From: Magnetococcales bacterium
Lineage (GTDB): Bacteria; Pseudomonadota; Magnetococcia; Magnetococcales; JADFWU01
Direction of reading: 5' to 3'
Assembly: GCA_015234045.1 (NCBI GenBank)
Contig: JADFWU010000013.1
Coordinates: forward strand, 253-64,252
DNA length: 64,000 nucleotides
Shown here: in pieces, positions 23,414-45,249 of the stretch
Numbering within the stretch: the stretch's first letter is position 1
Layout: every line of letters begins with the position of its first letter
The notes under the pieces: generated by a model
The model's database searches: none
The model's input: the letters and a program-made list of their open reading frames with translations, nothing else
What the model was told of the DNA's origin: nothing
Translations under genes and position numbers: made by a program

Positions 23414-24303
23414 CATCGGCTGCCTACTGTCGCAAAAAGACACGTCAGTCTCGCTCATCGTTCTACTATCCCCTTCTGCTGGCCGCGCCAATCCGGCGCG
23501 ATGCCCTGTTTGCCCTCTACGCCTTTTGCCGGGAAGTTGATGATCTGGTGGACGGCCCCATGGAATCCATACAGGCACAACAACAGCTTAATGGTTGGCG
23601 TAAAGAGATTCAGGACGCTTTTAACGGACAACCCAACCATCCAGTAGGCCATGAGATCAATCGGGCGCAACAGCGCTTTAATCTGCCGCAATCACTGTTC
23701 AATGACATTCTTGACGGCATGGAGATGGATCTCAACAACCGGCGCTATCTCACTCTGAACGACCTTCAACACTATTGTCAGCGTGTTTCTGTGGCGGTTG
23801 GCCTGCTGGCCATGCGGATTTTTCTCGGACATGGTGATGGTCACCCCATTCCAGATCTGATTCTCAAGCAAGGAGAGCGCTTTGCTCATCATCTGGGCAT
23901 GGCGTTTCAATATACCAATATCCTGCGCGATGTGCCTGAAGATCTGAACATGGGACGGATCTATCTTCCAGGTGAAATGCTGTTTCAGGCAGGTGTTTCT
24001 GAAGAGCAACTGATCACTGGATCAGGCGGTGCGGGTGTGGCGATTGTAGCCAGCCAGATTGCCGCCTTGGCCCAGGATCATTATCAAAAAGCCGCTGAAC
24101 TCATCACACCGGAATTACGACCTCGGCTGGTGCCTGCGGCCATGATGGCCGAGATTTATCAGACCTATTTGCACCGCATCCAACAGCACAATTTTGATGT
24201 ATTTACCGACTCTATTCGATTTAGCAGAATGGAAAAGCTGGTGCGGATAATTCGGGTTTGGATTCGGGAAAAAAGGCTGATTTGGATGGCACGCAGGACG
24301 TGA
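23410..24303 (+). CDS. hpnD: Presqualene diphosphate synthase HpnD (squalene/phytoene synthase family)
   Basis: 297 aa. FCREVDDLVD and NILRDVPEDL motifs. Paired with hpnC as in hopanoid/squalene loci. Confidence 0.8.
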   Translation: MTSAAYCRKKTRQSRSSFYYPLLLAAPIRRDALFALYAFCREVDDLVDGPMESIQAQQQLNGWRKEIQDAFNGQPNHPVGHEINRAQQRFNLPQSLFNDILDGMEMDLNNRRYLTLNDLQHYCQRVSVAVGLLAMRIFLGHGDGHPIPDLILKQGERFAHHLGMAFQYTNILRDVPEDLNMGRIYLPGEMLFQAGVSEEQLITGSGGAGVAIVASQIAALAQDHYQKAAELITPELRPRLVPAAMMAEIYQTYLHRIQQHNFDVFTDSIRFSRMEKLVRIIRVWIREKRLIWMARRT

Positions 24304-24402: not shown

Positions 24403-27078
24403 TCAGGTTATTCTGCCACAGCAGTGCTTGAATTTTCTACCGCTACCACAGGTACACGGCGCATTCCGGCCCACTTTCTTTTCGCTTCGCTTGAACGGTG
24501 TTCCACTGGGCTCTTCATCATCGCCCTTGGGGTTATTCATGGTCATACCGCGTTCACGTGCTTGCGCCCGCTCTGCTTCCGCCGCTTCGACCTGCTCCTG
24601 CTGCTGAACCTCAACACGAGACAGAAATTCCACCGTATCGACTTTAATACGGTCCAACAATCCGGCAAACAGGCTGAAAGCCTCTTGTTTATACTCGTTA
24701 AGCGGATCTTTCTGGGCATAGCCGCGTAGATGAATACCCTCACGGAGATGATCCATGTTCAGAAGATGTTCTTTCCACAGAAAATCCAACATCTGCAACA
24801 TGATGCTCTTTTCAAGATAGCGCATCAACGGCGGTGTCAAACGCTCTTCACGGGATTTCAGATAGGCATCAATAGCGGCCAAAGAACGCTCTTTCACCAC
24901 CAGAGCCGTCACACCCTCTTCCTCTTTCCATTCATCAGCGGGAAGAGAAATAGCGAACTGTTTCATAATGGAGTCAACGAATTCCTTGGTCTGCCACTCT
25001 TCAGGATAAGCCTCTTCAGGAATATATTGCTCCAGAATGTCGGTGAACAACTCATTACGACACTCGGCCAGATATTCAGAGATATCTTCACTCTCCATCA
25101 ACTGGCGGCGCTGCTCATAAATGGCCATGCGCTGATCGTTCATCACATCATCGAACTTCAGAATATTCTTACGAATATCGAAGTTGCGGCCTTCGACCTT
25201 TTTCTGTGCTGATTCAATGGCTTTATTGATCCAAGGATGGACAATGGCCTCACCCTCTTCCAAGCCTAATTTCTGCAACATGCCATCCATGCGATCAGAT
25301 CCGAAGATCCGCATCAGATCATCTTGCAAAGAGAGGAAGAAACGACTGGAACCCGGATCACCCTGACGACCAGCACGACCACGTAACTGATTGTCAATGC
25401 GTCGGGATTCATGCCGCTCTGTGCCGATGATGTGCAATCCGCCAGCGGCAAGAACGGCTCTGCGCTCGGCGTTTGTCTCAGCTCGGATAGCCGCGATACG
25501 TTGTTGTTTTTCTGCCTCATCCAGACCTTCAGGCACTTCCGCTTTGATACGCATCTCGACATTACCGCCAAGCTGAATATCCGTACCACGACCCGCCATA
25601 TTGGTGGCGATGGTTACCGCGTCTTTACGACCCGCTTGTGAGACAATTTCCGCTTCCATTTCGTGGAATTTAGCATTGAGCACTTTATGCGGTATTTTTA
25701 ATTTTTTCAGAGCTTTGGCCAGCTCTTCAGACTTTTCAATGGAGACGGTACCAACCAGCGTTGGTTGACCGCGTTTGTAGCAATCCTGCACATCGGTCAG
25801 GATGGCGTTCACCTTCTCGGCATGGGTGCGGTACACCTCGTCATCATTATCCACACGCACCAGATCCTGGTTGGATGGGATGATGATCACTTCCAGATCA
25901 TAGATGGATTCAAATTCCGTTGCCTCGGTATCCGCCGTGCCGGTCATGCCAGACAGAGTGTCATACATGCGGAACAGATTCTGGAATGTGATGGATGCCA
26001 GGGTTTGGGATTCGTTCTGAATCACCACCTGTTCTTTGGCTTCCAACGCTTGGTGCAGACCATCGGAGTAGCGCCGACCCGGCATCATACGTCCGGTGAA
26101 CTCATCAATAATGACCACTTCGCCCTCTTTGACGATGTAATCCTTATCATGTTCAAACAGCGCATGCGCTTTCAGGGCCTGGTTGAGATGATGGACTTTC
26201 TCAACATTGCGGACATCGTACAGATCGCCATCTTCGAGCAATCCGCGTTCACGCAACAGTTTTTCGCCATGCTCATTACCCTCTTCGGTAAGCACCACAG
26301 TACGGGCTTTTTCATCCACAGTGTAGTGCACATCCCGCTCTAACAACGGAATGATGGCATTGATTGTATAATATTTATCGGTATTGTCTTCAGTAGGACC
26401 GGAGATAATCAACGGCGTTCTGGCTTCATCAATCAAAATGGAGTCCACCTCATCGACGATGGCGTAGTGCAACGGCCTTTGCACCATCTCTTCCAAGGTA
26501 AACTTCATGTTGTCGCGCAGGAAATCGAAACCAAATTCGTTATTGGTGCCGTACGTGATATCCGCCTGATAGGCTGCCTGGCGCTGCACATCATCCTGAC
26601 CATGCACGATCACACCAACCGTCAAACCGAGAAATTGATAGATCTGCCCCATCCATTCGGAGTCACGTTTGGCCAGATAGTCATTGACGGTCACCAAATG
26701 GGCACCCTTGCCCTCCAGGGCATTGAGATAAAGCGGCAACGTTGCCACCAGGGTTTTACCCTCACCGGTGCCCATCTCCGTAATCTTACCGTGATGCAAC
26801 ACCATACCTCCGACAAGCTGGACATCAAAATGTCGCATACCGGTCACCCGGCGACTGGCTTCCCGCACCGTGGCAAACGCCTCGGGCAGCAGATCGTCCA
26901 GGGTTTCGCCATCGGCCAGACGCTGACGGAAAAGCACCGTCTGACCGCGCAAGGCGGCATCGTCCAGTGTCTTCAAGCCCTCTTCCAGATCATTGATCTT
27001 CTGGACGATGGGATTGAGGCGTTTGAGGTATCGTGTATTACGGGTTCCGAAAAATTTCCGGGCCAGTGCTGAAAACAT
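24403..27078 (-). CDS. secA: Preprotein translocase ATPase SecA
   Basis: Canonical N-terminus [14 protein letters not shown]..., DEAD-like motor motifs ([22 protein letters not shown]), and the C-terminal zinc motif [14 protein letters not shown]. The true ATG is at 27078 (GAAGGAAT Shine-Dalgarno); the 63 upstream codons in the track ORF look spurious. Confidence 0.95.
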
Positions 27079-27311
27079 GTCGCTTTGATTCCTTCGGAGC
27101 AGGCCTGAACGGACATCCCAGCCTGATATTCCATGCGGGACAGAGCCTATTCCATCCTTAATTTCACAAAATAAAAAACCAGAAATCTGAAACAAATCGA
27201 GTGCACACCTGAGGTGGGTACGCACCGATGGCGAAGCAAGCCTACCTTTTGTCGCCCAAGCAATCAAAGGCTAACCGTACTTTAAGTCACTTTTTCACCA
27301 AAAAAAGCCCC

Positions 27312-30300
27312 TCAACCGGGCATTTCAAACGGCGGCTCCTCTTTATTCCAAAACAGAGGCAAATCTTTGGGATCACCACAGCCATAGCTTTTGCCTTCTA
27401 TGAAGGGCTTGTAGCGGTCCAGCATTTTCTGGGGTTTGGGGACATCTTTGAAGGTGTCCCGTTTTTCCTGAGGTAGCGTGCAGAGTGCGGTGACCAATTG
27501 ACGAAGAGGCTCTCTCAAATCAGAGCGGCAGCCTGCCAGGAGATAACCATCATTTATAATATCCAAACGCTCTTCGTGATTGGATACTCTATTAACTATC
27601 GACTGAAAATCAGTGGCCTCAGTTTGACCTGAAGAGTTGGATATCTTAATTAACCAATCAATAAACTGCACAGCAACATCTTTGGTTTTTCTTCTTAGCC
27701 ATGTTTCAGACAACTCAACTATTTCATCAAATTGTTTTTCAAGAGCTAATGTCAATATAGTTTGATTAACAAACTCAGAAACCCCTTTCCCTTGCTGCAT
27801 GATTAAAAGAGACTTCTCAAAATGCTCTCTTGCCAAATCTGTTTCATTGAGATGTTGATATAATGAGCCTAAATTTCTATGTATATAAGCCCTACCTGCT
27901 TCATCCTCAGAAACAGTTAACCCCTTCTTAAAAACAGACTTGGCTATGCTGAAATAGCCATTACGATAATAAGATAATAATCCGAGACCATTCCATGCAT
28001 GCGCAAACTTTGGATCCAGATCTATCGCTTTTCGATACGATGACTCCGAGTCTTCATAACGATCCATATAATTTTGATACAAATTGCCCAACTCTTGCCA
28101 TGGATGCGCTAATTTTGGATCCAGTTCTATCGCTTTTCGGTATGATGACTCCGAGTCTTCATAACGCTCCATATGATTTTGATACAAATTACCCAATCCA
28201 TGCCATGGAGGCGCATACTTTGGATCCAGTTCTATCGCTTTTCGGTACGATGACTCCGATTCTTCATAACGCTCCATATGATATTGATACAAATTGCCCA
28301 ATTCATTCCATGAAATCGCAACCTTTGGCTCCAGTTCTATCGCTTTTCGATACGATGACTCCGAGTCTTCATAACGCCCCATGTTATATTGATACAAATT
28401 GCCTAATTCATACCATGAACCTGCAAACTTTGAATCCAGATCTATCGCTTTTCGATACGATGACTCTGAGTCTTCATAACGCCCCATGTTATATTGATAC
28501 AAATTGCCCAATCCATACCATGGATCTGCAAACTTTGAATCCCGTTCTATTGCTTTATTATAATACAACTCAGCGTTTTTATAATTCTCCATACAATTAT
28601 GATATAAATCTCCCAAAGCGGCACATACCCGAGCATCTTCTGGATCAATATCAGCAGCTTTTTTATAACATCTCTCAGCTTCAGGACATTCACCCTGTTC
28701 ACCAAAAGAATCCCCAACTCGTCCCCAAATACTTAAAACATCTTCTTCCACCGATTCAACACCTTGATAAATCAACTCTCTCAGTTCAGTATTCTTTCCA
28801 GCTTCCTGCCAAAGCTCATACCAATATTGCCCCCACTGCTCCCAAGCTGGGAACGGATGATTGCCTTTTTCGAAACCTTTTAACAGAGCAGGAACTATTG
28901 AATTATCTTCATTGAGAACAATGTGTTCTACCCACTCTTTTTGATGCTTAAAATAGTGGGAAATCAAATTAGGAATAAATTCACCATCCAGCATAGAAAG
29001 CTTTTGTCGTTCCTCATTAAACACCCCAACCAACTCATTGATTTGAGCAGCACTCAACGTGTCAAAATCGTCCAACAATTGCTTCTTATTTTCCCAAGAC
29101 ATGGACGTAAAGCCGGATAACCAGTCCAAAAATTCATCATGGCTGACCTTAACGCCCTCCGGCATTGGTTTAGAGCCAATGAGTTCTTCTCTGACAGAAT
29201 CAATTGTGCGCCCTTCTTCTGGCATCAGGTCCAAAGGCCAATACCAGTGAGGCAAACGCAACAGAGGAATAAAATCCTCGCTCCGATGTTTTTTTGGCAA
29301 TGAATCATCGAGAAGAAAGTGTTCTCTTTGCTGATTATCTGATTTTTTACTTTTCTGACTATCTGGTTTTCTATCCGCAGAGATACCGGTAGTGCGGGAG
29401 ATTTTTTCTTGGATTTCCCGCTCCTGTTTTTCCAGAAGCTGCCCATCAATGTCTTCGGCTATATTGATTACAGATTGTACATAGGGGTGCTCACGATTTT
29501 TCAAAGCCAGAGGTAGATCTGAAACAGCGAGATGTGGCGTATAGGGCAGCGTATATATTACAGGAACGACCTCATCCTGTTCACCTTCAGAAACATGCAG
29601 GCGTTCATCTTTCAACAACTGTTTACCCTGATTCAATGCCTGCATGGCAAAAGGATCATCATGGATATGGGCTGGAATCGGTGAGAACACCACTTTCAGG
29701 TCTTTTGCATAACACCCCAAAGGCACGCGCTCTTTTCGAAGTGCTTTAAGGGTTAAACTAAGACCTGTTAAATTCTGCTCATTAAGTCCAGATATCAAAA
29801 CGATTTCATCAGCTAAATAGCCCAGCGTCATATTCAACAGTTCTGGAAATCCTGTACGGCAATCAATCAGAACATAGTCGAATTTTTTCTTACAATCAGG
29901 GAGGACAAACTGGGAAAAATCTTCTCTCAATTTGAATGAAAAGCCCCTTAACGCCTTGTCAAAAGGATTTTTCGACGCGCCGTTCGAACTGGGAATAGTT
30001 TGAATTTCACCATCAATGATAGTTGGCGACTGAAAACGTACCTTACCTGCGCCCATGGCCATAATTCGACCATTCCGCCCCCAAACCATCCCCTTTGGAG
30101 GAAACATTTCCCGAAACAGTCTACCGGCTGGATAGTAGCCAAAATGATCGGGATTCTCTTTATGTTTTTCGTAGAAAATTGTCAGCAGATCACTAAATCC
30201 TCGACCTTCAAGAGAAGGATCACTCCAGGGTGAATTTTTCAGCATGGGAGAATAGGTCAGCCCAGGAGCCGCCAGATCCATATCCACCAAGCCAATCACT

Positions 30301-30392
30301 TTACCCAAAGAAGCCCAGTAGGTAGCCAGATTCATCATCAAAGAGGTTCTGCCAACACCACCTTTAAATGAGAAGAACGCTATAATTTTCAT
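27312..30392 (-). CDS. ParA/MinD-like 'KGGVGR' variant NTPase fused to a 35-aa TPR-like repeat array (1026 aa); cassette gene A
   Basis: N-terminus MKIIAFFSFKGGVGRTS is a deviant Walker A with the P-loop Lys replaced by Arg. Switch motif VDMDLAAPGL; Walker B FDYVLIDCRTG. It has at least 7 tandem 35-aa TPR-like units (W.xLGNLYQ...RYEDSESSYRKAI(E/D)LDPK). The C-terminal tail DRYKPF..GCGDPKD...EMPG is shared with the 32416-35829 product. Confidence 0.85.
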   Translation of the reverse strand: MKIIAFFSFKGGVGRTSLMMNLATYWASLGKVIGLVDMDLAAPGLTYSPMLKNSPWSDPSLEGRGFSDLLTIFYEKHKENPDHFGYYPAGRLFREMFPPKGMVWGRNGRIMAMGAGKVRFQSPTIIDGEIQTIPSSNGASKNPFDKALRGFSFKLREDFSQFVLPDCKKKFDYVLIDCRTGFPELLNMTLGYLADEIVLISGLNEQNLTGLSLTLKALRKERVPLGCYAKDLKVVFSPIPAHIHDDPFAMQALNQGKQLLKDERLHVSEGEQDEVVPVIYTLPYTPHLAVSDLPLALKNREHPYVQSVINIAEDIDGQLLEKQEREIQEKISRTTGISADRKPDSQKSKKSDNQQREHFLLDDSLPKKHRSEDFIPLLRLPHWYWPLDLMPEEGRTIDSVREELIGSKPMPEGVKVSHDEFLDWLSGFTSMSWENKKQLLDDFDTLSAAQINELVGVFNEERQKLSMLDGEFIPNLISHYFKHQKEWVEHIVLNEDNSIVPALLKGFEKGNHPFPAWEQWGQYWYELWQEAGKNTELRELIYQGVESVEEDVLSIWGRVGDSFGEQGECPEAERCYKKAADIDPEDARVCAALGDLYHNCMENYKNAELYYNKAIERDSKFADPWYGLGNLYQYNMGRYEDSESSYRKAIDLDSKFAGSWYELGNLYQYNMGRYEDSESSYRKAIELEPKVAISWNELGNLYQYHMERYEESESSYRKAIELDPKYAPPWHGLGNLYQNHMERYEDSESSYRKAIELDPKLAHPWQELGNLYQNYMDRYEDSESSYRKAIDLDPKFAHAWNGLGLLSYYRNGYFSIAKSVFKKGLTVSEDEAGRAYIHRNLGSLYQHLNETDLAREHFEKSLLIMQQGKGVSEFVNQTILTLALEKQFDEIVELSETWLRRKTKDVAVQFIDWLIKISNSSGQTEATDFQSIVNRVSNHEERLDIINDGYLLAGCRSDLREPLRQLVTALCTLPQEKRDTFKDVPKPQKMLDRYKPFIEGKSYGCGDPKDLPLFWNKEEPPFEMPG
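27990..28620 (-). repeat. Six tandem 105-bp DNA repeats (coding 35-aa TPR-like units) inside cassette gene A
   Basis: An anchor motif recurs at 28011, 28116, 28221, 28326, 28431 and 28536, a strict 105-bp period. The units at 28326 and 28431 differ by about 1 nt over ~67 nt. Confidence 0.9.
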
Positions 30393-31378
30393 GCCACATA
30401 CTCTTCACTACTAAAAGACTCTCCTGGCATTGTATTAATAGCTTCAATTACACATTCATCTAAACCTCCATCAACCAAATCGAATGTAACGCTCTTTGAT
30501 TCTGAAAGTGGTATTTCAGAATCTTCTAATTCACCCTCTCTCTCTGACGGTTCAAGAATTTTATCTTCATCTTTCTTTGCCAGCACAGAAACTCCACTAC
30601 TACGAATCATTTCAACCTGATCCGACCAAATTTTATTCACCCGCCTTGCCGCAGCCTCATATTTTTCATAGGAACAGTTCTCAAAAAATGGCTGCACTTT
30701 CCCTTCATAAATAATCGGTAAAACTTCCAACGCTTTCGGCATCAGGCGAGTAACCGCTGCACGACGAACCATAAAACTCCAAAGCAGATCCTCATGCTGA
30801 CTATCAACACATAGCTCGCCTATATCAGTCCACACCTCTATTTGTTTCAATGACTCAATAGACAGTTCACCTTGATTATCAATCATTCCCTGCAAAATCT
30901 TCTGTGGAATCTTTATATCAAGACGATCTAACAATTTATTTCCAGCAGCTCTTCTCATCTGCTTGATGTCATCATGCGTGGCAAACATCAATTTCTTTGT
31001 CCCACACATCCACTTTCCTGACAGCGGCGGCAAGAATTGTGATCGAGATTTTGCTTCGGTGTTTTCAACAAACCTGGGAAAGGAACCGGCCAACGCTTCA
31101 TACTCTTTTAAAAATTCAGAATCCATATAAAAAGCACGGATATTTCTTCCTACGAACTTTTTTTCAACAACCGGACAGAGCAACCCTGTTTCTGAATACT
31201 CTTCAAAATCAGATCGGCTGATAATTTTTGTAATATCTTCCAGAATATCATCCAACAACCCCAATTTATCCGGCTCTTGTGTGCTATGTACAATCACAGC
31301 CTCCTCACCACAGCCATCTGCGAGACTTCTGTTGACAGCTTCAACAATTACTTTTTGATTGTCTGTCGTCTCAGTCAT
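30389..31378 (-). CDS. Hypothetical acidic protein (329 aa); cassette gene B
   Basis: The ATG at 31378 overlaps the stop of gene C (ATGA), and its own stop overlaps the ATG of gene A (ATGA). No recognisable motif. Acidic C-terminal tail. Low GC, like A and C. Confidence 0.7.
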   Translation of the reverse strand: MTETTDNQKVIVEAVNRSLADGCGEEAVIVHSTQEPDKLGLLDDILEDITKIISRSDFEEYSETGLLCPVVEKKFVGRNIRAFYMDSEFLKEYEALAGSFPRFVENTEAKSRSQFLPPLSGKWMCGTKKLMFATHDDIKQMRRAAGNKLLDRLDIKIPQKILQGMIDNQGELSIESLKQIEVWTDIGELCVDSQHEDLLWSFMVRRAAVTRLMPKALEVLPIIYEGKVQPFFENCSYEKYEAAARRVNKIWSDQVEMIRSSGVSVLAKKDEDKILEPSEREGELEDSEIPLSESKSVTFDLVDGGLDECVIEAINTMPGESFSSEEYVA

Positions 31379-32262
31379 CTCATACCGCCCTGCTTTTTCT
31401 CTATCCAATTTTTCATAAAATCACGCACGCCTTGTTCCGGGTCAGCGCCATAATCCAGAAAACCATCTGGCAATTCGGGAGGTTCCGACACCCCTTCCTC
31501 ACCTCTGACATAGGCTTCTTTCCATAGAGCCAACGCGCCAAGAACCTTTCGATAAGTTTCCTTTGGCATTGCCCAGCCTAACAATGCATCAGTAACAGAA
31601 ATAGGTTTTGGTCCGGTTAATCGCACTTCCCAAGTCCAAGAGGCCCAGTCATCAGACAACTTGTCCACATAGCGAACGGGAAGATCACAATGATCCCAAC
31701 AAGCATCTTTCAATTCTGGGCAACTTGCAGGTTTGTCACCATCCATATAATTTTGCCACTCAGAACCATAGAAGGACCACAAATATTCATGGAAGCCAGC
31801 ACGCCACTGATCCAATTCCATCCGTGTTTCCTGTAAAAATTTTACAGCCTTAAACCGCTCTTTATCCTCAGATTCAACAGGAAACGGCTTGCAATTTCCT
31901 GTGAACACACCACCGCTGTCACACGGCGTTGCACAACCATCCTTTTCGCGCTCTATCTCCGGATGATAACACAGCATAATTAGCTCACCATAAACCTCAT
32001 CTCGACCAATTGCTCTTTTTTCAGCCTTATTTCGGTCAGGCCGCCCAGCTTTTCCAGCATACATGTAAACAGCAGGCATCCAACCGCATTTTTCCTGCAC
32101 GTCCCAACAACGACTGCCTTTTTTGGACACATGATAGAAAAGAGAGTCCTGGTTTTTATCTTTAAAGGCATCAAAAATCCAATCAACAGGTGTCGTATGC
32201 ACCAACGGCATCCAAGATGCGGGTGATTTACCTTCCCGAAACACTTGTTCAATCATGGCCAT
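31375..32262 (-). CDS. Hypothetical Cys/Trp-rich protein (295 aa); cassette gene C
   Basis: ATG at 32262 has GGAG 6 nt upstream. The track start 32325 adds 21 implausible residues. Many Cys and Trp residues (CWDVQEKCGW, CATPCDSGG..GNC, SCPELKDACWDHC). No family recognised. Confidence 0.7.
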   Translation of the reverse strand: MAMIEQVFREGKSPASWMPLVHTTPVDWIFDAFKDKNQDSLFYHVSKKGSRCWDVQEKCGWMPAVYMYAGKAGRPDRNKAEKRAIGRDEVYGELIMLCYHPEIEREKDGCATPCDSGGVFTGNCKPFPVESEDKERFKAVKFLQETRMELDQWRAGFHEYLWSFYGSEWQNYMDGDKPASCPELKDACWDHCDLPVRYVDKLSDDWASWTWEVRLTGPKPISVTDALLGWAMPKETYRKVLGALALWKEAYVRGEEGVSEPPELPDGFLDYGADPEQGVRDFMKNWIEKKQGGMR

Positions 32263-32373
32263 ATACAACTCCAGTAAGTACGCATATCCACAACTCAAAA
32301 AACATAATCGCTTACAGTTGTTCAACGCAATCCTGAAGATACTATATGATATTTATTCTTTGTTAAAGATTTG

Positions 32374-32400
32374 ACCGGGCTTCAAGGAGGGAAGCCCGGT
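32374..32400. terminator. GC-rich hairpin between cassette genes D and C
   Basis: ACCGGGCTTC-aaggagg-GAAGCCCGGT: 10-bp perfect stem with a 7-nt loop, 16 nt past the stop of gene D. A T-tract (TTTTGTT) follows on the plus strand and an A-tract precedes on the minus strand, so it could act bidirectionally. On the gene strand the trailing sequence is only CAAAUCUUU. Confidence 0.45.
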
Positions 32401-32415
32401 TTTGTTGAGAAGACC

Positions 32416-35400
32416 TCAGCCAGGCATATCCAACACCGGTTCGTCCTCTTTGAAGAACCGGTTCATATCATTCGGATCGCCACAACCAATGCTTAATCGT
32501 GCAACAAATGGTTTGTAGCGGTCCAAAATCTCTTTTGGAAGAGCTACATCTTTAAAGGTTTCCAGCTTTTCAGCAGGCAATCCATAGAGCTTATTGGCAA
32601 AGCGGCGTAATGGTAGGCGCAGATCTGCCCGGAAGCCGGATATCCGATAACAAGCCGTGAGTATTTCGAACCGTGTGTAGTGGCTGGAGAGCGTATCTAT
32701 GACCGATTGCGTGTTCATGGCATCCAGTGGTGTTTTTTGGAGCCAGGCGGCAAAATGTAGATTAGCGTCTTTTGGGAATTTTATTAGCCAATCATTCAGA
32801 ATATCCGCTGATTGATCGCCCTTTTTGTTCAGGCAGGCTTCCAAAATGATCTGAATATGGCAATGATGGCGGTATAGATCGGGCCTGAGACCGGATAAGG
32901 ATTGATCCAAGTGCGCGATGGCCATACCGTTTTCATCGGCATGCTGGTAAAGAAAACCAAGATCCCGTTGCAGGGTTGCATTGATATTTTCATCATCAGC
33001 CAGTGACAAACCTTTTTCAATCAATTTCTTGGCGGCGCTGTAATGGCCTCGGTGCATCCAATAAAGCAAGCCCATACCATGCCAGGGATAGGCATATCTT
33101 GGATCAAGCTCAATGGACTTACGATAAGCCGCTTCCGCTTCATCAAGACGACCCAGATGATCTTGCAACAGATTGCCCAACCCATTCCACGCAGAGGCAT
33201 AACTCGGCTTTAAAGTCAGTGCATGTTGATAGGCTGATTCCGACTCGGCATAGCGTGCGAAGTGATTTTTCAGCAGGTTGCCCAGCTTGTTCCAGGGATC
33301 AACCTCTGAGGCATCAAGCTCAATCGATTTCCGATAAGCGGCTTCCGCCTCTTCCGGTCTACCCAATTTATATTGATACAGATTGCCCAGACCATGCCAA
33401 GGCGCGGCCAGAGAGCCATCCGCTTCGATAATCTTGATGTACGCCTCTTCCGAAGCGTCTGGCCGGTGCAGCTTGTACTGATACAAATTGCCCAACGTAT
33501 ACCAGGGATGGGCATAATTGGGATCAAGCTCAATAGCCTTTTTGAATACAGCCTCTGAATCTTCTGGACGGTCCAGTTTATTTTGATACAACTTGCCCAG
33601 ACCATGCCACGCATCGGCGTATTTTGGATCAAGTTCCAACGCCTGTTGATAGGCCGCTTCCGAAGCCTCAGGCCTGTCCAGTACATGTTGATAAAGATTG
33701 GCCAACCCTTGGTGATAATTGGGCAGACGCGGTTCCAACTCAATGGCGGTCTGATAAGCGGCTTCAGACTCCTCTGCGCGGTCGAGTTTATAGTGCAACA
33801 GCTTGGCTAGTCCGTACCACGGATACGCCAGCGAACCATCCAAGGCAATGGCCTTACGGTACGCCTTTTCAGACTCTTCATAGCGATTGAGATGGTTTTT
33901 GAGCAGATTACCCAGACCATGCCAAGTATCGGCGTTGTTGGGATCACTCTCCAACGCTTTCCGATAGGCCGACTCAGCCTGTTCTGGACGATTGAGCGTA
34001 TATTGATACAGATTACCAAGCCCTTGCCAGGCATTGGCCAGCGACTCATCCAGCGCCAGCGCCTGACGGTACACTTTTTCCGCATCGGAGGGACGGTCAA
34101 GGCGTTCATGCAACAGCCGACCAAAGTTTGACCACGCTTCAGGATCATTCCGATCCTGGTCAATACTCTTGATAAATGCACCCGCCGCTTGATCATACTC
34201 TCCAGAAGCGGCAAGACGGATGCCTAAACGATTCCAAGCTGAAGCATCTTCGGTATCCATTTTAAACGCCTCCTGCATAGCCTGTTCATAACGTGGGGGG
34301 TCATTGCGAAACAGTTCTGCCAACGCAACCCAAAAAATCGGTAGATCTTCCCAGCTTGGGAATGATCCTTTGCGTTGAGCCGCCTGATCCATAAGCGGCT
34401 TGATGATCTTACCGGGCTGATTCAGAATCACGCGATCTGCCCAGGCAATCTGATGGTGCAGATAGAACACCATGCGTGAGGTCGGGTCTGAGCCATCCGG
34501 CACAGCGTGTCTTTGCCGTTCCCTATCCAATATATCAATCAGCGCGTTGAGTTGCGACTGTGACAGATCCGGCATAAGAGCTAAAATACGTTTTTTCTCA
34601 CCCACTGAAAAAGCCACCGAACCGGCCAGCAGGTCCAAAATTCCATCTTTATCCGCAATCACACCCTGCGGCAACGTGCCAATCAATCCCGCGCGAACCT
34701 CTGCGATACGATCCTTTTGACCTGTTGCCAAGAGCGGCCAGTACCAACGCGGCAGAATCAATTGAAATTCCGTAGATTCAGCCCTACTATCAGCGCTATC
34801 CAGATATTTCTTGGACGATTTCACCAGCCCTGCCACAGCCGCATCGTCACCAGTGAAGGACACCCCAACACACCGACCCATCGCATACTGGGTCTTTTGG
34901 ATTGTGTGTTGCACGGTTGCCCCATCAATCTGTTCAGCAATCGCCATCACGGTCCGCACATAGGGCAGATCCTGACGATTCAACAGCAACGGCAGATCCG
35001 ATCCGGCAAGCCGAGCATCATAGGGCATAACGAAACACGCTGGCGTGGTTTCGACTTGAATATCTTCAGGCGGCACCAAAGCATACGCAGAAGACAAACG
35101 CACCCCTTTTTCCAACGCCTGCATGGCCAGCGGACAGATATTGATCTGACTCTGCAACGGCGACAACGCCACCACCACGTCACGAGCATACGCACCAAAC
35201 GGAATCGCCTCTTCACGCAACGTTTGGAGCGTTTCAGCAAAAACGGATAAATTTTGACTGGTCAAACCGGACATCAACACGATCTGATCCGCCATATTAC
35301 CCAGCATCAGAGCCAGTAGATCAGGGTATCCCGTCCGAAAATCCACCAACACATAATCAAACGCCCGCCCACTGTCTGGCAAAACGTAATTTTTTACTCT

Positions 35401-35829
35401 CTTTCTAAAATCACGATAAAAAGCCTGCACTTGTTCACTATCAAGCTCTTCAGCAAGTGGTAAACAGATCTCACCACTACGCACGGAACCCGCACCCAAG
35501 GCCCACACCTGACCAGTGCGCCCCCACTTCTGTCCGTTGGGTAGCGTCACTTCTCTGAACAGGGCGGAGAGCGGCAACGCTTCAGCCTCTTCAGACGTAT
35601 CAATCGCATTAAAATAGGCGATTAAATCACTTACGCCACACCCTTCAAATGCCGGATCAGGCCACGCAAGATCGTTGATAAGCGGCAAACCGGTCAAACC
35701 CGGTGCTGCCAGATCCATATCAACCAAACCAACCACGTTGCCAAGTGAGGCCCAATAGGCGGCCAACTCAGTGATCAGAGCAGTGCGACCAACACCGGCC
35801 TGACACGAAAAGAATGCAATGATTTTCAT
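32416..35829 (-). CDS. Paralogous ParA/MinD-like NTPase with degenerate P-loop (QAGVGRT) fused to a 35-aa TPR-like repeat array (~1137 aa); cassette gene D
   Basis: MKIIAFFSCQAGVGRTAL..., VDMDLAAPGL and FDYVLVDFRTG are collinear with gene A. It has about 11 35-aa TPR-like units and the same C-terminal tail (DRYKPF..GCGDPND...DMPG). Start taken at ATG 35829 by homology with A; the track uses a TTG at 35856. Confidence 0.85.
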   Translation of the reverse strand: MKIIAFFSCQAGVGRTALITELAAYWASLGNVVGLVDMDLAAPGLTGLPLINDLAWPDPAFEGCGVSDLIAYFNAIDTSEEAEALPLSALFREVTLPNGQKWGRTGQVWALGAGSVRSGEICLPLAEELDSEQVQAFYRDFRKRVKNYVLPDSGRAFDYVLVDFRTGYPDLLALMLGNMADQIVLMSGLTSQNLSVFAETLQTLREEAIPFGAYARDVVVALSPLQSQINICPLAMQALEKGVRLSSAYALVPPEDIQVETTPACFVMPYDARLAGSDLPLLLNRQDLPYVRTVMAIAEQIDGATVQHTIQKTQYAMGRCVGVSFTGDDAAVAGLVKSSKKYLDSADSRAESTEFQLILPRWYWPLLATGQKDRIAEVRAGLIGTLPQGVIADKDGILDLLAGSVAFSVGEKKRILALMPDLSQSQLNALIDILDRERQRHAVPDGSDPTSRMVFYLHHQIAWADRVILNQPGKIIKPLMDQAAQRKGSFPSWEDLPIFWVALAELFRNDPPRYEQAMQEAFKMDTEDASAWNRLGIRLAASGEYDQAAGAFIKSIDQDRNDPEAWSNFGRLLHERLDRPSDAEKVYRQALALDESLANAWQGLGNLYQYTLNRPEQAESAYRKALESDPNNADTWHGLGNLLKNHLNRYEESEKAYRKAIALDGSLAYPWYGLAKLLHYKLDRAEESEAAYQTAIELEPRLPNYHQGLANLYQHVLDRPEASEAAYQQALELDPKYADAWHGLGKLYQNKLDRPEDSEAVFKKAIELDPNYAHPWYTLGNLYQYKLHRPDASEEAYIKIIEADGSLAAPWHGLGNLYQYKLGRPEEAEAAYRKSIELDASEVDPWNKLGNLLKNHFARYAESESAYQHALTLKPSYASAWNGLGNLLQDHLGRLDEAEAAYRKSIELDPRYAYPWHGMGLLYWMHRGHYSAAKKLIEKGLSLADDENINATLQRDLGFLYQHADENGMAIAHLDQSLSGLRPDLYRHHCHIQIILEACLNKKGDQSADILNDWLIKFPKDANLHFAAWLQKTPLDAMNTQSVIDTLSSHYTRFEILTACYRISGFRADLRLPLRRFANKLYGLPAEKLETFKDVALPKEILDRYKPFVARLSIGCGDPNDMNRFFKEDEPVLDMPG

Positions 35830-36221
35830 GATGCTAATAGTGTCAGTTTTACTCAATCTTTTCCAGGTATTCTAGGGCTGTACCAAACAAAAAGTGCTTT
35901 CATGACACATTTGTTCCGAAGCCCGCAAAACCTAATTCCAGCATAGCACAAACCCGGTTGGCTGATTCCCTGTTTCACGCTACATATTGCCGCTGACCAA
36001 TCACCTGCGCTATTATCATGCACTGGCGCGTGGGGATGCGCTCTCCCGATCAACAAAAAGAACCTTGAATCTTCCCGACGGGAACACCTGAAAAGGGTGG
36101 GCCAAGCGCTTTTTTTTGCCCTCTTTTTCTCGTTCAGAACCTTTCCCCGCACCCTTTGTTAGTCTGTTCAATTGAAAACAGATCGTTATCCTCGCCTGAC
36201 CATCTAAATAAAAAAACAGTC

Positions 36222-37610
36222 ATGGAAATTTGGGACAAAGTACTGGATGCATTAAAAGAGCAGGTTTCCGAGCAAGTATTCAGTGCCTGGATATCTCCAC
36301 TACGCCCGGCTGGTCCCATTCGGGGCAGTGAGTTGGAAATTCTGGTGGGCAATGACTTTTCCCTTGATTGGGTGAAAAGTCGCTATGACTCGCTACTGAC
36401 CGCTTCATTCTCTGCCGAAGCGGGTCGCGCCATCACCATTGTCTACACAATAGACACCAACGCCCCAATCAAGCCCGCCCAAGAAGATAATGCAAAATCC
36501 GCAGAGCAAAAAGACACCCCCGAAACACCAAAACAAGCCGCGAAACCAAAACAAGCCGATCCTTCTGATGAATCCACCACCCTGCCCCGTGAAAGCGGGT
36601 TAGACCCGCGCTACACCTTTGACTCATTCGTGGTCGGTGGCTGTAATCAGTTTGTCCATGCCGCTTCCGAACGCGTAGCGGAAGCCCCGGCAACCGCTTA
36701 CAACCCGCTGTTTATCTACGGCGGTGTCGGTCTGGGTAAAACGCATTTGATGCATGCTATCGGACATAAAGTGCTTGAAGATCGCCCCGATGCGCGGGTG
36801 CTCTATATCTCCTCGGAAAAATTCATGACCGAGTTGATCAACTCATTGCGCTTTAAACGGGTATTCAATTTTAAAGAGGAATTCCGGTCAGTCGATCTAC
36901 TATTGATTGATGATATTCAGTTCATCGCTGGAAAGAAGGCCACTCAGGAAGAGTTTTTTCACACCTTCAACGCCCTGTTCGAAGCCAATAAGCAGATCAT
37001 CATGACCTCAGATCGGTTTCCCAATGAGATCGACAATCTGGAAGAGCGCCTGCGCTCTCGCTTCGGCTGGGGCTTGGTGGCGGATATTCAACCGCCTGAG
37101 CTGGAAACCCGTGTGGCAATTCTGAAGAAAAAAGCCAGCATGGAAGGCTTGGAACTGCAAGATGATGTGGCTTTTTTCCTCGCCAACGCCATTCAAACCA
37201 ACGTCCGGGAACTGGAAGGCGCTTTGGTGCGTGTTTCAGCCTTCTCGTCACTCACCAGACAGCCGGTGACCATGGAGTTGGTCAAAGAGTCGTTGCGGGA
37301 TATCGTCAAAGGCCAGGAGCGCCAGATTACCATTGAAGGCATTCAGAAAACCGTCTGCGCCTTCTATAAAATCCGCCCACAGGATATGCGTTCAAACAAA
37401 CGCTCACGCCTGTTTGCCCATCCGCGACAGATTGCCATGTACCTCTGCAAACAACTGACCCGCCACTCCTACCCGGAAGTAGGTCATCAGTTTGGTGGAC
37501 GCGACCACACCACGGTTCTTTATGCCGTCCGCAGCATTGATAAAAAAATGAAAAGCGATGGCAATTTGGCCGAAGAGGTTGAGACACTCAAGAACATGAT
37601 TACCAAGTAA
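36222..37610 (+). CDS. dnaA: Chromosomal replication initiator protein DnaA
   Basis: N-terminus MEIWDKVLDALKEQV..., Walker A GGVGLGKTHL, Walker B LLLIDDIQF, and the DNA-binding signature FGGRDHTTVLYA. The true ATG is at 36222; the track start 36156 adds 22 residues. Confidence 0.95.
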   Translation: MEIWDKVLDALKEQVSEQVFSAWISPLRPAGPIRGSELEILVGNDFSLDWVKSRYDSLLTASFSAEAGRAITIVYTIDTNAPIKPAQEDNAKSAEQKDTPETPKQAAKPKQADPSDESTTLPRESGLDPRYTFDSFVVGGCNQFVHAASERVAEAPATAYNPLFIYGGVGLGKTHLMHAIGHKVLEDRPDARVLYISSEKFMTELINSLRFKRVFNFKEEFRSVDLLLIDDIQFIAGKKATQEEFFHTFNALFEANKQIIMTSDRFPNEIDNLEERLRSRFGWGLVADIQPPELETRVAILKKKASMEGLELQDDVAFFLANAIQTNVRELEGALVRVSAFSSLTRQPVTMELVKESLRDIVKGQERQITIEGIQKTVCAFYKIRPQDMRSNKRSRLFAHPRQIAMYLCKQLTRHSYPEVGHQFGGRDHTTVLYAVRSIDKKMKSDGNLAEEVETLKNMITK

Positions 37611-38100
37611 AGCCATAGAAAGGACTTAAATTGACGGGAAGCAACCGCCGTTTACGCTCCTTAGCATACTTAGCTGAACGCGTTGTTTGTTCAGCAAGAT
37701 AAGCGACAAGTTGAGCGTCCCAGGAAGGCGAACCAAAGTTTTTAAGGAGACTAAGAGTCTCTGGTTCAATTTGATACACAGCTTTGGGACTATTAACTGG
37801 GCGATCTGGCTCATCTGGATTATATAAGGCAATACCAGCATCTACAAACTGATGCATTGTTTGCCGACGAAAAGTCTCACGAGTGTTGGGTGCATACGCC
37901 TTTCCATAGTGATCTCGACTGAAATCCATCATGGGCGTAATGCCTTTCAGTGGACTTTCGGCTTGTATCCAGCTTTTCTCAGGAGAAAGATCCAACAGTG
38001 CAAGAAGACAAAGTGCTGAACGCTCATTCTGCTGAGCACGAGGCATTTCAAGCGCATCAAGAATAACGATAGCTTCTGTAATGTTGCGATGAAGACTCAT
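37600..38100 (-). pseudogene. Truncated BsuBI/PstI-like type II restriction endonuclease (N-terminal HTH domain only)
   Basis: 166 aa. The string ..PRAQQNERSALCLLALL...YAPNTRETFRRQTMHQFVDAGI..NPD.PDRPVNSPKAVYQI matches my recollection of the BsuBI/PstI endonuclease N-terminal domain. Full-length enzymes are ~320 aa. The ORF runs into the 3' end of dnaA and lacks a catalytic half. Family assignment is from memory only. Confidence 0.5.
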
Positions 38101-38937
38101 GCAATGCTTTCAATTTTTTGATCAATATTTTGTTGAGAAAAAGGACTGTCAACTTTTTTAACCCACTGCCCAATCTTGATAAGAGTATCACGATTTGGAT
38201 ACATCATGCGACGAAGGTCTGTCACATTGACTTGAGTATGACCACTGAAGCAACGAAAGTGCCGATCAACTGCTGATGAATTTCCTAAACGACCGATAAT
38301 AAGGACCATTACAAAAACTCCGCGGGATAATGGCCACGAGTTGCCCTAGTGGTTCCAATAATGCAAGCGATAGAGATAGAAATGCAGAGTATAAATTTAC
38401 TGTTTCAATACCCACTGATCTCAGAATTTTTCGATAGTGCGAAGTATTCTTAATCTTATGATAGGGCGGATTCAGGATTGCGTGAGTAAAACGCTGGCCA
38501 CTTCCATCTCGCAGATTTAAAACAGCATCATCAACAAAATCAGTCGTGATAATTCGCGATCTCAGAGAGCTCTGTCCCCTCAACAAATGCAGGGTTTGCC
38601 TTAAAGAGTCGATGAGGTTCTCATCAATTTCATAAGCGGTAAGATCAATACGGCTGTTTTCTCCGTGACGACGGAGAAAAGCGTGTAATAGCGCTCCTCT
38701 TCCAGCCCCAGCATCAAGAAGACGGATTGTTTCCCCTCTTCTAGGAAGAAACAACAAACTCATAAAATCAGCAATGGTTGTTGGCGTTACAAATTGGCAG
38801 AGAGAAGATTTTCTTTCAGAACATGCAGGCGGCACAAGTGCAAAAGGCTCCTCAAAATCCCGAAGAGAATCAAGCCGATGCGTTTGTAAAAAACTGCTTT
38901 TTTCAAGACTCATTGAAAGACCGCCGCTACTAAGCAA
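38097..38937 (-). pseudogene. Frameshifted/truncated gamma-class N6-adenine DNA methyltransferase (PstI/Eco57I-like)
   Basis: SAM motif LLDAGAGRGALL precedes the catalytic ILNPPYHKI. The reading frame breaks near 38266-38309: a 223-aa ORF then a 70-aa ORF in another frame. The combined length (~290 aa) is well short of typical ~500-aa enzymes. GC is ~33% in a hand-counted 60-nt sample. Confidence 0.6.
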
Positions 38938-42464: not shown

Positions 42465-42624
42465 ATAGTGATTTCGATCCAAAACGTGACACTAAATCAC
42501 AACCTGAGTGGAAGCTCTGGTGATATTTTTGCGCCGCTTTATGATATGCAAGGCAGATCATCAGAGCAAAAACATCACCAGGGATGGCACGGCTGACTGT
42601 TCAAATTTTAGACGAAACCATTAT
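42465..42624 (+). repeat. MITE-like interspersed element, copy 4 (160 bp)
   Basis: Same architecture, with the best-preserved terminal inverted repeats. The right terminus (ATTAT) contains the TAA stop (42621-42623, minus strand) of the HD-GYP gene. Confidence 0.85.
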
Positions 42625-43712
42625 ACCCTATCAAACAACTTCGGCTGCGGCATAAAGTCGCGTGGAGTCAGCCCCCAACGCGTGGATGACTCCCGCCCCA
42701 GGATCTTGTAACCATGGAGGCCCTCTTCCTTACAAACCAACAGGTCAACTATTTCTGGCTCGACTTTCTGTTTTATATTCGTGTCATACACCACCTTGAC
42801 CACAGGATGCAGCACGCTTTCGGTGGTATTGGTGATCACCACAGCCAACAAGCCATTCTCCAGTTTAACCAATGATCCAGTTGGATATATGCCTACGCAT
42901 TGGACAAACTTATGGAACAAGTCAACATTGAAATCCCGTTCACTCCACTGCAACATGCGCTGAAGCGCCACATGTGGATCGTTTCCTTTGTGATAACACC
43001 GATCCGATGTGATGGCATCATAGACATCAACAATAGCCGCCATCTGACCGAACAGGCTGATTTCATCGCCTTTCAGCTTGTTCATATAACCGGTGCCATT
43101 GTAGCGCTCGTGGTGCTCTGCACAGATACTGATGGCGGTTTGGGAAATGCCAGGGCTGCGTGACAAAATTTCAACGCCGCGCGGCACATGCCCTTTCATG
43201 ATGCCATACTCTTCGTCAGTCAGTTTACCTTCCTTATTAAGCACTTCCGGCGGTGTCCGCATTTTGCCGATATCATGCAACATACCACCTATACCGACTT
43301 CTACCAGCTGATCAGAATCCATGCCCAAAGTCTGATGAAACGACATCAAAAACACACCAACATTCACCGAATGCATAAAGGTGTATTCATCATGTTGCTT
43401 CAACTGCGCCAGAGTAAGCAGCGCATCCCGATTGGTAAACATGGACTCAGCCATGACCTTTACCGTTTCACGAATAGGCCCAACGTTGATCTGCTGTCCC
43501 ATCCGCACATCTTCGAACATGCTGCCGATGATCTTACGGGCTCTGGCTTTGGTTTCCGTGGCATGAGGAAGCTCTTCAGCAAGATTATCCACCTGCGCCA
43601 TACCCTGGTGGATGGCTTCGTTACTACCACCACGAGCTGGTGCCGGGTCCAAATCATCCATCTGAGCACGAAGCAGTTCCAGTGCATCTTCTTCCGTAGC
43701 GTGTTTTGACAT
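42621..43712 (-). CDS. HD-GYP domain c-di-GMP phosphodiesterase (variant GYM motif)
   Basis: 363 aa. HDIGK, HHERYNGTGYMNKLKGDEI (GYP changed to GYM). About 65% identical by eye to the neighbouring HD-GYP over the catalytic domain. Confidence 0.85.
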   Translation of the reverse strand: MSKHATEEDALELLRAQMDDLDPAPARGGSNEAIHQGMAQVDNLAEELPHATETKARARKIIGSMFEDVRMGQQINVGPIRETVKVMAESMFTNRDALLTLAQLKQHDEYTFMHSVNVGVFLMSFHQTLGMDSDQLVEVGIGGMLHDIGKMRTPPEVLNKEGKLTDEEYGIMKGHVPRGVEILSRSPGISQTAISICAEHHERYNGTGYMNKLKGDEISLFGQMAAIVDVYDAITSDRCYHKGNDPHVALQRMLQWSERDFNVDLFHKFVQCVGIYPTGSLVKLENGLLAVVITNTTESVLHPVVKVVYDTNIKQKVEPEIVDLLVCKEEGLHGYKILGRESSTRWGLTPRDFMPQPKLFDRV

Positions 43713-43774
43713 GATGATCTATTCCTGGCTTATCATGAGTGGAGAAGAGCTCTCACAGCATATTACTGATTTTT

Positions 43775-43941
43775 ACAGTTATTTCGATCAGAAATTAGAC
43801 AATGAATCACAACCTGAGTGGAGCCATGGTGATATTTTTGCACCGCTTTTGATATGAGAAACAGATCATCAGAGCAAAAATATCACCATGGCTGAAATGG
43901 CTGAAACGGCTGAATGTTCAAATTTTAGACGAAACACCGAT
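43775..43941 (+). repeat. MITE-like interspersed element, copy 5 (167 bp)
   Basis: Most divergent copy. The central hairpin is a perfect 18 bp (CCATGGTGATATTTTTGC/GCAAAAATATCACCATGG). It has a small GGCTGAAA(T/C) duplication. Confidence 0.8.
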
Positions 43942-44007
43942 ACATCAGAATATCTTATTCGAACAGCGCTTCCGTTTCGAGACAATTATCACAACATAGT
44001 GACCATA

Positions 44008-45249
44008 CTACTGAAAAAGTTCAGGCTTGGGCATGAAAGCCTTGGGATCGATTTTCCAGCGAGCCGGCGACTCTTCATGGCGAATCTTATATCCACTCCC
44101 CTTTTCCCGATACTCCAGAAGATCCATAATCTCCGGTGTCAGTGGACGATTTTTAGCCGTATCATAGATCACATTAACGATGGGATGAAGCAGGCTCTCT
44201 TGATTGGACTGAATCACCACACCCATCAGACCATTTTCCATCACCACCAGCGTACCGATGGGATAAATACCCACACAGCGAACAAAACTGTGATAGAGGT
44301 TCAGATCAAAATGGTGTTTACTCCACTCCAACATCTTCCGCAACGCCACATGAGGCGGCATCCCTTTGTGATAACAGCGATCTGAAGTGATGGCATCATA
44401 GACATCCACCAAGGCAGACATCTGACCAAACAAACTGATCTGATCCCCTTTCAATTTATGCGGATAACCACTGCCATCATATCGTTCATGATGCTGACCC
44501 GCCACATCCAACGCCTCTTGTGACACGCCTTCTGTCTCGGACAGAATGTCATGACTGAACTCTACATGCTTTCGCATGATCATAAACTCATCATCACTCA
44601 GTTTACCGGGTTTGTTGAGCACTTCCTGAGGCGTTCTCATCTTGCCGATATCATGCAGAAGCGCCCCCACTCCCACATCAATGATGGTCTCTTCATCCAT
44701 CTGAAGACCGCGACAAAAGGACATCAGAAACACACCGACATTGACCGAATGCAAGAAGGTGTACTCATCCCGTTGTTTGAGTTGGCCCAAACTGAGCATG
44801 GCGTTTTGGTTGCTGAACATGGATTCCACCATGCCTTCAACAACGTTACGCACCGGACCGATGGCGACCTGTTTACCCAGCCTGGCATCTTCCAAGACAT
44901 TGCCAACCAGTTTCCTGGCATGTTTTTTCACCTCAGCAGCGCGGGTGAGCTCCTTTTCCATGGATGAAAATTTTGCCGGCGGCGGCGGTGCGGGCGCGTC
45001 ACCCAACTCCATGATCTGGGCCGCAAGATCTGCATGCACCTCTTGGGCTGTGGGCGCATTCGGCACATCCAACCCTTTGGCTGTATCAATATAGAGCTCT
45101 TTTAAACCCTGTTGGCGAATATAGGAGATCTGAGTACTTTTTTTGAGCAACAACTGTTTGGGAAAGGGATTATCATCACGCCAAGCGCAATTGAAATCAT
45201 GGATGAACATCCCCGGTTTGAGGGCTGAGACAGGGACTTTTTTGATCAC
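44008..45249 (-). CDS. HD-GYP domain c-di-GMP phosphodiesterase with N-terminal DUF3391-like domain
   Basis: 413 aa. N-terminus MIKKVPVSALKPGMFIHDF... resembles the DUF3391 domain common in HD-GYP proteins. HDIGK, HHERYDGSGYPHKLKGDQI. Confidence 0.88.
   Translation of the reverse strand: MIKKVPVSALKPGMFIHDFNCAWRDDNPFPKQLLLKKSTQISYIRQQGLKELYIDTAKGLDVPNAPTAQEVHADLAAQIMELGDAPAPPPPAKFSSMEKELTRAAEVKKHARKLVGNVLEDARLGKQVAIGPVRNVVEGMVESMFSNQNAMLSLGQLKQRDEYTFLHSVNVGVFLMSFCRGLQMDEETIIDVGVGALLHDIGKMRTPQEVLNKPGKLSDDEFMIMRKHVEFSHDILSETEGVSQEALDVAGQHHERYDGSGYPHKLKGDQISLFGQMSALVDVYDAITSDRCYHKGMPPHVALRKMLEWSKHHFDLNLYHSFVRCVGIYPIGTLVVMENGLMGVVIQSNQESLLHPIVNVIYDTAKNRPLTPEIMDLLEYREKGSGYKIRHEESPARWKIDPKAFMPKPELFQ

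Follow-up and report, generated by a model that had tools for sequence, protein, structure and literature searches.

The Walker A lysine ranks among the most invariant residues in biology, and its exchange for arginine is the textbook means of freezing a ParA-type ATPase (adenosine triphosphatase) in the ATP-bound state. Here we examine a 64,000-nucleotide stretch of a Magnetococcales metagenome-assembled genome (MAG; GCA_015234045.1, contig JADFWU010000013.1, positions 253 to 64,252 of the forward strand; the whole stretch is hereafter the window), in which two reverse-strand genes, A and D, code for large multidomain proteins whose N-terminal ATPase domains carry arginine at precisely this position. 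Our best explanation, to which we assign a probability of roughly 55%, is that both hold the latch-type domain of the NCBIfam family NF047398, with A being the standard ATPase of a conserved gene cassette and D a half-degenerate extra paralogue.

By fold, A resembles the SIMIBI proteins MinD, ParA (Soj), FlhG and FleN, with which it shares the signature lysine, the D-x-D switch I and the Walker B aspartate. Both A and D differ from MinD and ParA in the arginine of the phosphate-binding loop (P-loop), in some 60-80 additional residues between switch I and Walker B, and in the fusion of the ATPase domain to ~700-800 further residues (a middle domain, a tetratricopeptide repeat (TPR) array and a C-terminal domain). 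The Walker B strand is followed by R-T-G in A and D (P-A-G in MinD), and no ParB, MinE or MinC partner genes lie near either of them. Precedents for the arginine exist among laboratory mutants: P1 ParA K122R binds ATP, dimerises and binds DNA, while its hydrolysis cannot be stimulated and the protein locks onto ParB, and McdA K15R is likewise an ATP-trap (bioRxiv 10.1101/2021.04.02.438200). The substitution, its position and the fold are the same in A and D, but the two mutants are engineered and dominant-negative, whereas the arginine considered here is natural and maintained by selection.

NF047398 is a named family without a described function. A matches it end to end and carries its motif ([FY]S[FY]KGGVGR[ST]), whereas D is homologous but keeps only the GVGRT half, with Q-A in the place of K-G. 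Further afield, the vWA-MoxR (VMAP) ternary conflict systems of developmentally complex bacteria contain effector-associated domains described as 'inactive MinD/ParA-like' (Kaur et al. 2020, PMC7159879). As in the present case, the MinD/ParA-like domain is there part of multidomain proteins, but that clade may differ from NF047398 and the likeness serves as a lead only; vWA, MoxR and VMAP genes are absent among the neighbours in the window.

Deviant Walker A motifs of A and D

The genes and the sites on which the comparison is built are the following (all on the reverse strand).

27312-30392: gene A, 1026 aa, MBF0621435.1; in order, KGGVGR ATPase domain, middle domain, TPR array and conserved C-terminal domain
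30389-31378: gene B, 329 aa, MBF0621436.1; no known family
31375-32262: gene C, 295 aa, MBF0621437.1; no known family, conserved YxYAG, PxDxGG and WTWE motifs
32416-35829: gene D, 1137 aa, ATG at 35829, MBF0621438.1; paralogue of A that has diverged but keeps its order of domains
29433-30392: ATPase domain of A, aa 1-320; MinD/ParA/FlhG fold (NF047398, AlphaFold2, Foldseek)
30345-30365: deviant Walker A of A, KGGVGRT; K10 is the signature lysine, R15 stands at the P-loop lysine position
30258-30287: switch I / Walker A' of A, VDMDLAAPGL; D37 and D39
29850-29876: Walker B strand of A, YVLIDCRTG; D177, then the family-invariant R179-T180-G181
34915-35829: ATPase domain of D, aa 1-305; below the NF047398 cutoff (79.9 bits)
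35782-35802: degenerate Walker A of D, QAGVGRT; the signature lysine is replaced by Q10 and the invariant glycine by A11, R15 is kept
35695-35724: switch I of D, VDMDLAAPGL, the same sequence as in A
35329-35355: Walker B strand of D, YVLVDFRTG; D163, with R165-T166-G167 kept

The four products are exact matches of GenBank entries MBF0621435-438 (Magnetococcales MAG, contig of 80.7 kb), where they are annotated as 'tetratricopeptide repeat protein' or 'hypothetical protein'. The reading of KGGVGRT in A and QAGVGRT in D, taken from the initial annotation, was reproduced from the reverse-complemented sequence (AAA GGT GGT GTT GGC AGA ACC at 30345-30365 and CAG GCC GGT GTT GGT CGC ACT at 35782-35802, respectively), and a six-frame regular-expression scan of the whole window returned these two sites only. 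That annotation overlooked two further changes in D: the glycine that follows the signature residue has become alanine (G11A), and F9, just before that residue, is cysteine (F9C).

We registered the motif by three approaches. When phmmer was run against the PDB sequences, residues 3-47 of A aligned with MinD (4v03) and Soj (1wcv) in such a way that KGGVGRT falls column-for-column on KGGVGKT, and in a second segment FDYVLIDCRTG of A was aligned with the Walker B strand of Pyrococcus horikoshii MinD (YDFILIDCPAG). An AlphaFold2 model of residues 1-325 of A, built on a 34-sequence alignment, attained a mean predicted local distance difference test score (pLDDT) of 91.7 and a predicted template-modelling score (pTM) of 0.92; its modelled succession of strand (2-8), loop (9-14) and helix (from R15) has the topology of a classical P-loop. 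The best matches of this model in a Foldseek search of the PDB were FlhG, Soj, MinD, FleN, NifH, BcsQ and ParA (E 6e-9 to 1e-6), with target-normalised TM values of 0.65-0.74. The three approaches agree that GVGR(T) is the phosphate-binding loop, as had been assumed, and a structure-based misregistration was not seen. The motif is not a product of chance, because it forms part of the core that is conserved throughout a family of homologues.

The proposed paralogy of A and D, with ParA/MinD-type N-terminal domains in both, also holds: the full-length proteins are 39% identical and share their domain order, and the ATPase domains are 48% identical. In both of them the lysine of the P-loop GK[ST] is arginine, and the switch I and Walker B aspartates are intact (D37, D39 and D177 in A; D37, D39 and D163 in D). 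Only D has lost the signature lysine (Q10, K10 in A), in keeping with what had been reported.

The invariant arginine of the KGGVGR family

Against the NF047398 profile ('KGGVGR-motif variant AAA ATPase') A reached 99.7 bits, the match spanning residues 1-218 and exceeding the curated cutoff (90), whereas D remained under it (79.9 bits, E = 3e-22); ten other relatives scored 93.8-172.8, leaving D alone below the cutoff. A is thereby an ordinary member of the family.

In order to census the Walker A motif, a profile of the A and D N-terminal domains was searched against 1.84 billion cluster representatives, which returned 5186 matches at E<=1e-3, 676 at E<=1e-10 and 60 at E<=1e-30. The motif could be read in 140 of the best 150 matches (a census based on hidden Markov model (HMM) alignment), and arginine occupied the P-loop position in 140/140: 97 were KGGVGRT, 35 KGGVGRS, 5 RGGVGR[ST], and one each NGGVGRT, KGSVGRT and QAGVGRT, the last being gene D itself and the only motif of its kind. 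A second, word-indexed search gave 59 KGGVGR[ST] and 5 RGGVGR[ST] among 64 readable motifs. A profile or an alignment was needed for such retrieval, since a word-indexed homologue search with the D N-domain alone and a scan of genome contigs with the A N-domain alone produced no matches. At least 585 loci with the pattern were found in species-representative genomes, scattered over Magnetococcales, cyanobacteria, Planctomycetota, Verrucomicrobiota, myxobacteria, Thiomargarita and others. We stress that a Walker A census of 80 of the genomic loci (80/80 KGGVGR) was rejected as evidence, because these loci had been retrieved by a pattern that contains KGGVG and the count is hence circular.

The remainder of the active site is conserved to a similar degree. 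Within a 141-sequence alignment R15 and G11 are present in 100% of the sequences, K10 in 96%, D37 and D39 in 99%, D172 in 97% and D177 in 99%, and the R179-T180-G181 triplet that follows Walker B in 95-99%; the switch I and Walker B aspartates are kept in 99% of the 139 other family sequences. The conservation of the arginine together with the rest of the site indicates that the active site is under strong selection and that the arginine is no sign of decay. The initial annotation had treated the lysine-to-arginine change as a peculiarity of A and D, a view that has to be abandoned: it is an invariant hallmark of NF047398 (140/140 readable relatives) and consequently carries no information specific to the A/D locus. 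The arginine of the clade is an ancestral, strictly selected hallmark and not a local degeneration.

By analogy with the engineered lysine-to-arginine mutants, we reason that the KGGVGR domain most likely acts as a latch for dimerisation that depends on nucleotide and is long-lived or else gated by a partner; this latch would govern the assembly of the TPR arms and of the small cassette proteins C and B. The idea that A and D bind nucleotide but hydrolyse it slowly, as switches and not as motors, is by the same analogy plausible when it is applied to the family as a whole. The conserved catalytic aspartates and signature lysine suggest a site that still performs chemistry or tightly regulated binding.

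These residues bear as well on a reading in which the domain is a fully active nucleoside triphosphatase, the arginine (possibly together with R179) replacing the lysine, and A and D are ordinary cycling ParA/MinD-like ATPases instead of latches. In its favour, catalytic residues are conserved along with the binding ones (signature lysine, D37/D39, Walker B aspartate) and an additional invariant R-T-G motif is present; the same substitution, however, abolishes stimulated hydrolysis in P1 ParA and produces an ATP-trap phenotype in McdA, and the MinD/ParA-like domains of conflict systems are called predicted-inactive by Kaur et al. 2020 (a clade possibly distinct from NF047398). On balance, we hold full activity to be somewhat unlikely.

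The family is architecturally varied, as some members carry a second, fused P-loop ATPase of the Sll1717 family (NF047389) or TIR domains; L056 (9638-12328), P0155 and P0218 are examples of such fusions. One relative is annotated as CpsD/CapB; a BY-kinase or another non-NTPase role was considered and dismissed (no tyrosine cluster, no Wzc-type context).

Gene D as a probable half-degenerate paralogue

D forms the longest branch of the ATPase-domain tree, sister to the clade in which A groups with its orthologues, and its identity to the other family members compared is lower than that of A in 23/23 cases. It departs from the consensus at 7/39 of the best-conserved positions (F9C, K10Q, G11A, N21E, N204T, G210V and P240Q), whereas A departs at 1/39, by a conservative change. 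Together with its place as the only relative below the NF047398 cutoff, this upholds the description of D as a degenerate copy. D retains G12-V13-G14-R15-T16, both switch I aspartates (D37, D39), the aspartate of Walker B and the R-T-G that follows it. The altered N204 is aligned with the E of the MinD NPE motif, where the interface helix begins. A and D are each other's best match in the middle domain and in the C-terminal domain (123 and 120 bits, versus 92 and 75 for the next), whereas the ATPase domain of A scores higher with its orthologues in other genomes (360-288 bits) than with D (275 bits), which shows that the acceleration is specific to the ATPase domain of D.

With its interface residues lost and its cis nucleotide-binding residues kept, D is best understood as a nucleotide-binding module that is half degenerate. 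The part of its deviant Walker A that faces the dimer partner is lost (F9C, K10Q, G11A), as are two residues aligned to the MinD interface helix (N204T, G210V); D would bind its own nucleotide yet be incapable of completing the active site of a partner, and canonical sandwich dimerisation is probably weakened. In ParA-type ATPases a glycine-to-valine change at the glycine equivalent to G11 sterically blocks such dimerisation (bioRxiv 10.1101/2021.04.02.438200). A partial parallel is offered by McdA-type ParA proteins, which like D hold a non-basic residue at the signature position and keep the rest of the site. McdA, though, takes a substitute lysine (K151) from elsewhere and retains the invariant glycine and the P-loop lysine, whereas in D the glycine is changed too and no compensating basic residue was found at the 39 best-conserved positions (deviations to C, Q, A, E, T, V and Q).

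Two elements lie between D and C (both on the reverse strand).

32374-32400: GC-rich hairpin of 10 bp, 16 nt after the D stop codon; terminator-like or a stabiliser element
32339-32366: sigma-70-like promoter, a consensus match (TTAACA-16-TAGTAT)

The 76-nt segment with the hairpin folds at -21.9 kcal/mol (z = -4.7), and from the sequence of this interval D is probably transcribed separately from C-B-A.

The initial annotation had envisaged an asymmetric nucleotide-sandwich heterodimer of A and D, in which K10 of A would complete the site of D while Q10 of D would leave that of A incomplete, resulting in one competent and one degenerate site. The two genes are neighbours on the same strand; D holds every cis nucleotide-binding residue (GVGRT, D37, D39, the Walker B aspartate and RTG) and is devoid of the trans-acting lysine; and the mutual affinity of the middle and C-terminal domains fits shared partners or co-assembly. 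Such a dimer could form despite G11A, given the small size of alanine and the chance that the C-terminal domains common to both proteins assemble together. The alteration at the dimerisation-blocking glycine, accompanied by those at N204 and G210 of the interface helix, nonetheless speaks against it, as do the hairpin, the promoter-like site and the differing GC content at third codon positions (GC3), which set D apart from C-B-A. The comparative data point the same way. Orthologous C-B-A cassettes carry one ATPase, no D-like gene stands upstream of C in the related loci compared, and a second family ATPase was encountered within 10 kb in 3/80 loci; at one of these both copies are canonical (L056), and at another the second copy (HGGVGRS) is split into two open reading frames (ORFs; L080). 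The NGGVGRT member, moreover, occurs without a partner, and this solo member and the McdA precedent show that the loss of the signature lysine requires no canonical partner. The comparative evidence thus argues against the heterodimer as a general, family-level design; the claim comes from one MAG, has no comparative support, and we judge it unlikely.

The heterodimer also figures in a more elaborate scenario. The ParA/MinD ATPases of the KGGVGR clade would there be 'ATP-traps' by nature and work as a nucleotide-latched switch of assembly within an undescribed three-gene system (two small proteins and an ATPase-TPR scaffold, possibly for defence or conflict), and D would have been recruited to pair with A in an asymmetric dimer that has one complete active site and operates as a one-shot timer. 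We deem this conjunction very improbable.

The opposite possibility is that the ATPase domain of D is a pseudo-enzyme or is decaying, so that it persists as a structural module only, or that D is the relic of an older cassette stripped of its C and B, with no nucleotide-dependent role. The confinement of accelerated evolution to this domain and the sub-cutoff NF047398 score are compatible with such a fate; no cognate C or B is found upstream of D (dnaA begins ~330 bp away), and other copies with deviant signatures look truncated or split (P0023 and the second copy of L080). D is, on the other hand, an intact ORF of 1137 codons with host-like codon composition, implying long-term maintenance, and its cis nucleotide-binding residues all equal the family consensus, which is unexpected if binding were dispensable. 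We therefore consider loss of any nucleotide-dependent role to be improbable. The half-degenerate reading of D is preferred: D is an intact, long-resident paralogue that has kept the residues of its own nucleotide pocket and shed the cross-dimer ones, and it fits a 'degenerate half-site' better than a 'dead gene'. Its motif is a true variant, known to date from one MAG.

The C-B-A cassette, its surroundings and implications

Genes C, B and A follow each other with 4-nt overlaps (C stop with B start, B stop with A start), and A, the last of the three, is the standard ATPase of a conserved, translationally coupled cassette that behaves as a mobile island would. In seven Magnetococcales loci (L001-L004, L012, L014 and L016) homologues of C and B stand directly upstream of a single homologue of A. 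Synteny of the flanks (secA, dnaA and others) between the window and the related cassette loci was tested for and found absent. Other subfamilies display the same layout of two small genes plus an ATPase gene, with different upstream pairs; at L041, L066 and L075 the ATPase is preceded by an MqsA-like antitoxin gene (helix-turn-helix, HTH) and a gene of ~116-122 aa. Two family loci were at times recovered from different contigs of one MAG (L001 and L016 in CAYFNE01, both complete C-B-ATPase cassettes; L014 and L036 in PDZX01), which indicates that several copies per genome occur at separate loci and not as adjacent ATPase pairs.

Base composition distinguishes the cassette from what surrounds it: GC3 amounts to 0.35-0.40 in C, B and A versus 0.51-0.57 in the neighbouring genes (0.51 in D), and GC content is 41-43% at 28000-32000 (A, B, C) versus ~50% elsewhere, D included. 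This drop is consistent with a more recent acquisition of C-B-A than of D. One family member adjoins an integrase. Within PADLOC, A (E = 2.9e-15) and D (E = 6e-10) both matched PDC-M28B partially, and PDC-M28A was matched by the upstream gene of a cyanobacterial relative only; B, C and a 99-aa upstream ORF had no PADLOC matches, and the pair of PDC-M28A and PDC-M28B was not encountered at the window. PDC-M28 is itself only a candidate system, on which a literature search returned nothing relevant. Taken together, the associations suggest that C-B-A is a mobile, conflict-system-like cassette, the evidence being associative. A profile search seeded with C recovered only 5 Magnetococcales hypothetical proteins.

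The TPR array of A contains one more DNA-level feature.

27989-28556, reverse strand: 105-bp tandem repeat, 5.4 copies with 88% match, encoding near-identical 35-residue TPR-like units of A

The repeat-unit sequence (27989-28556) includes …GNLYQYNMGRYEDSESSYRKAIELDPK…, and the array of A points to a recent in-gene amplification; the array of D has no DNA-level repeat. The C-termini of A (27312-27800) and D (32416-32900) share a conserved motif, roughly RF(R/K)PFxxGxSxGxGDPxDxxLF(C/W), which has no Pfam match and is common to many family members (relatives P0005-P0054). The middle domain likewise has a conserved motif, LP(H/R)WYWPL, and both domains are undescribed.

The D-C-B-A block is flanked by dnaA (36156-37610, forward strand, divergent from D) and secA (24403-27267, reverse strand), with restriction-modification fragments and squalene/phytoene synthase genes also among the neighbours. 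Cumulative GC skew falls monotonically across the window without an inflection at dnaA, hence no origin signature is evident. Beside dnaA (37600-38937, reverse strand) are a 166-aa ORF that matches the N-terminal HTH domain of BsuBI/PstI endonuclease only, a 223-aa ORF with an Eco57I-type methylase domain and a 70-aa ORF between them; these have the appearance of degraded remnants, which suggests that the neighbourhood is variable or a defence island. The squalene/phytoene synthase family genes form a tandem pair with overlapping stop and start codons (22535-24303, forward strand), possibly for the synthesis of hopanoid or carotenoid precursors and with no relation to the ATPases. Two genes ~300 bp apart (42621-45249, reverse strand) each combine a DUF3391 match and an HD/HD_5 domain in an HD-GYP-like manner, the DUF3391 match being strong for one gene (E 7e-25) but weak for its neighbour (E 1.6e-4); with a GGDEF protein (20563-22008) they may be genes of cyclic di-GMP turnover.

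Several observations weigh against the latch-and-cassette explanation that we favour. The conserved catalytic aspartates and signature lysine could equally mean normal hydrolysis with arginine, perhaps helped by R179, and a literature search on the KGGVGR family yielded nothing relevant and no experimental study. The link with defence, which the data hint at, derives from HMM matches that are weak or incomplete and from PADLOC systems that are themselves unvalidated candidates. B and C gave no significant match to Pfam, NCBIfam or PADLOC, nor as profiles to the PDB sequences, and the AlphaFold2 model of C is unusable (pLDDT 38). D is known from one MAG; neither an orthologue, which could have shown its variant motif to be kept by selection, nor FFSxQAGVGRT-encoding DNA was found in the JGI metagenomes searched, and the terminator and promoter between D and C are putative, consensus-level assignments.

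The arginine of the P-loop is thus already known as the signature of NF047398, and what is unusual at this locus is the further loss of dimer-interface residues in D. A large clade in which arginine is naturally fixed while the other catalytic residues are preserved would reveal how evolution makes a latch from a cycling ATPase, or else how arginine serves catalysis. A conserved cassette that unites two uncharacterised proteins, a TPR scaffold and hints of defence makes a reasonable target of study, and D, as far as its residues allow us to judge, may represent a natural experiment in which the nucleotide-binding residues were kept and the trans-acting interface was lost.

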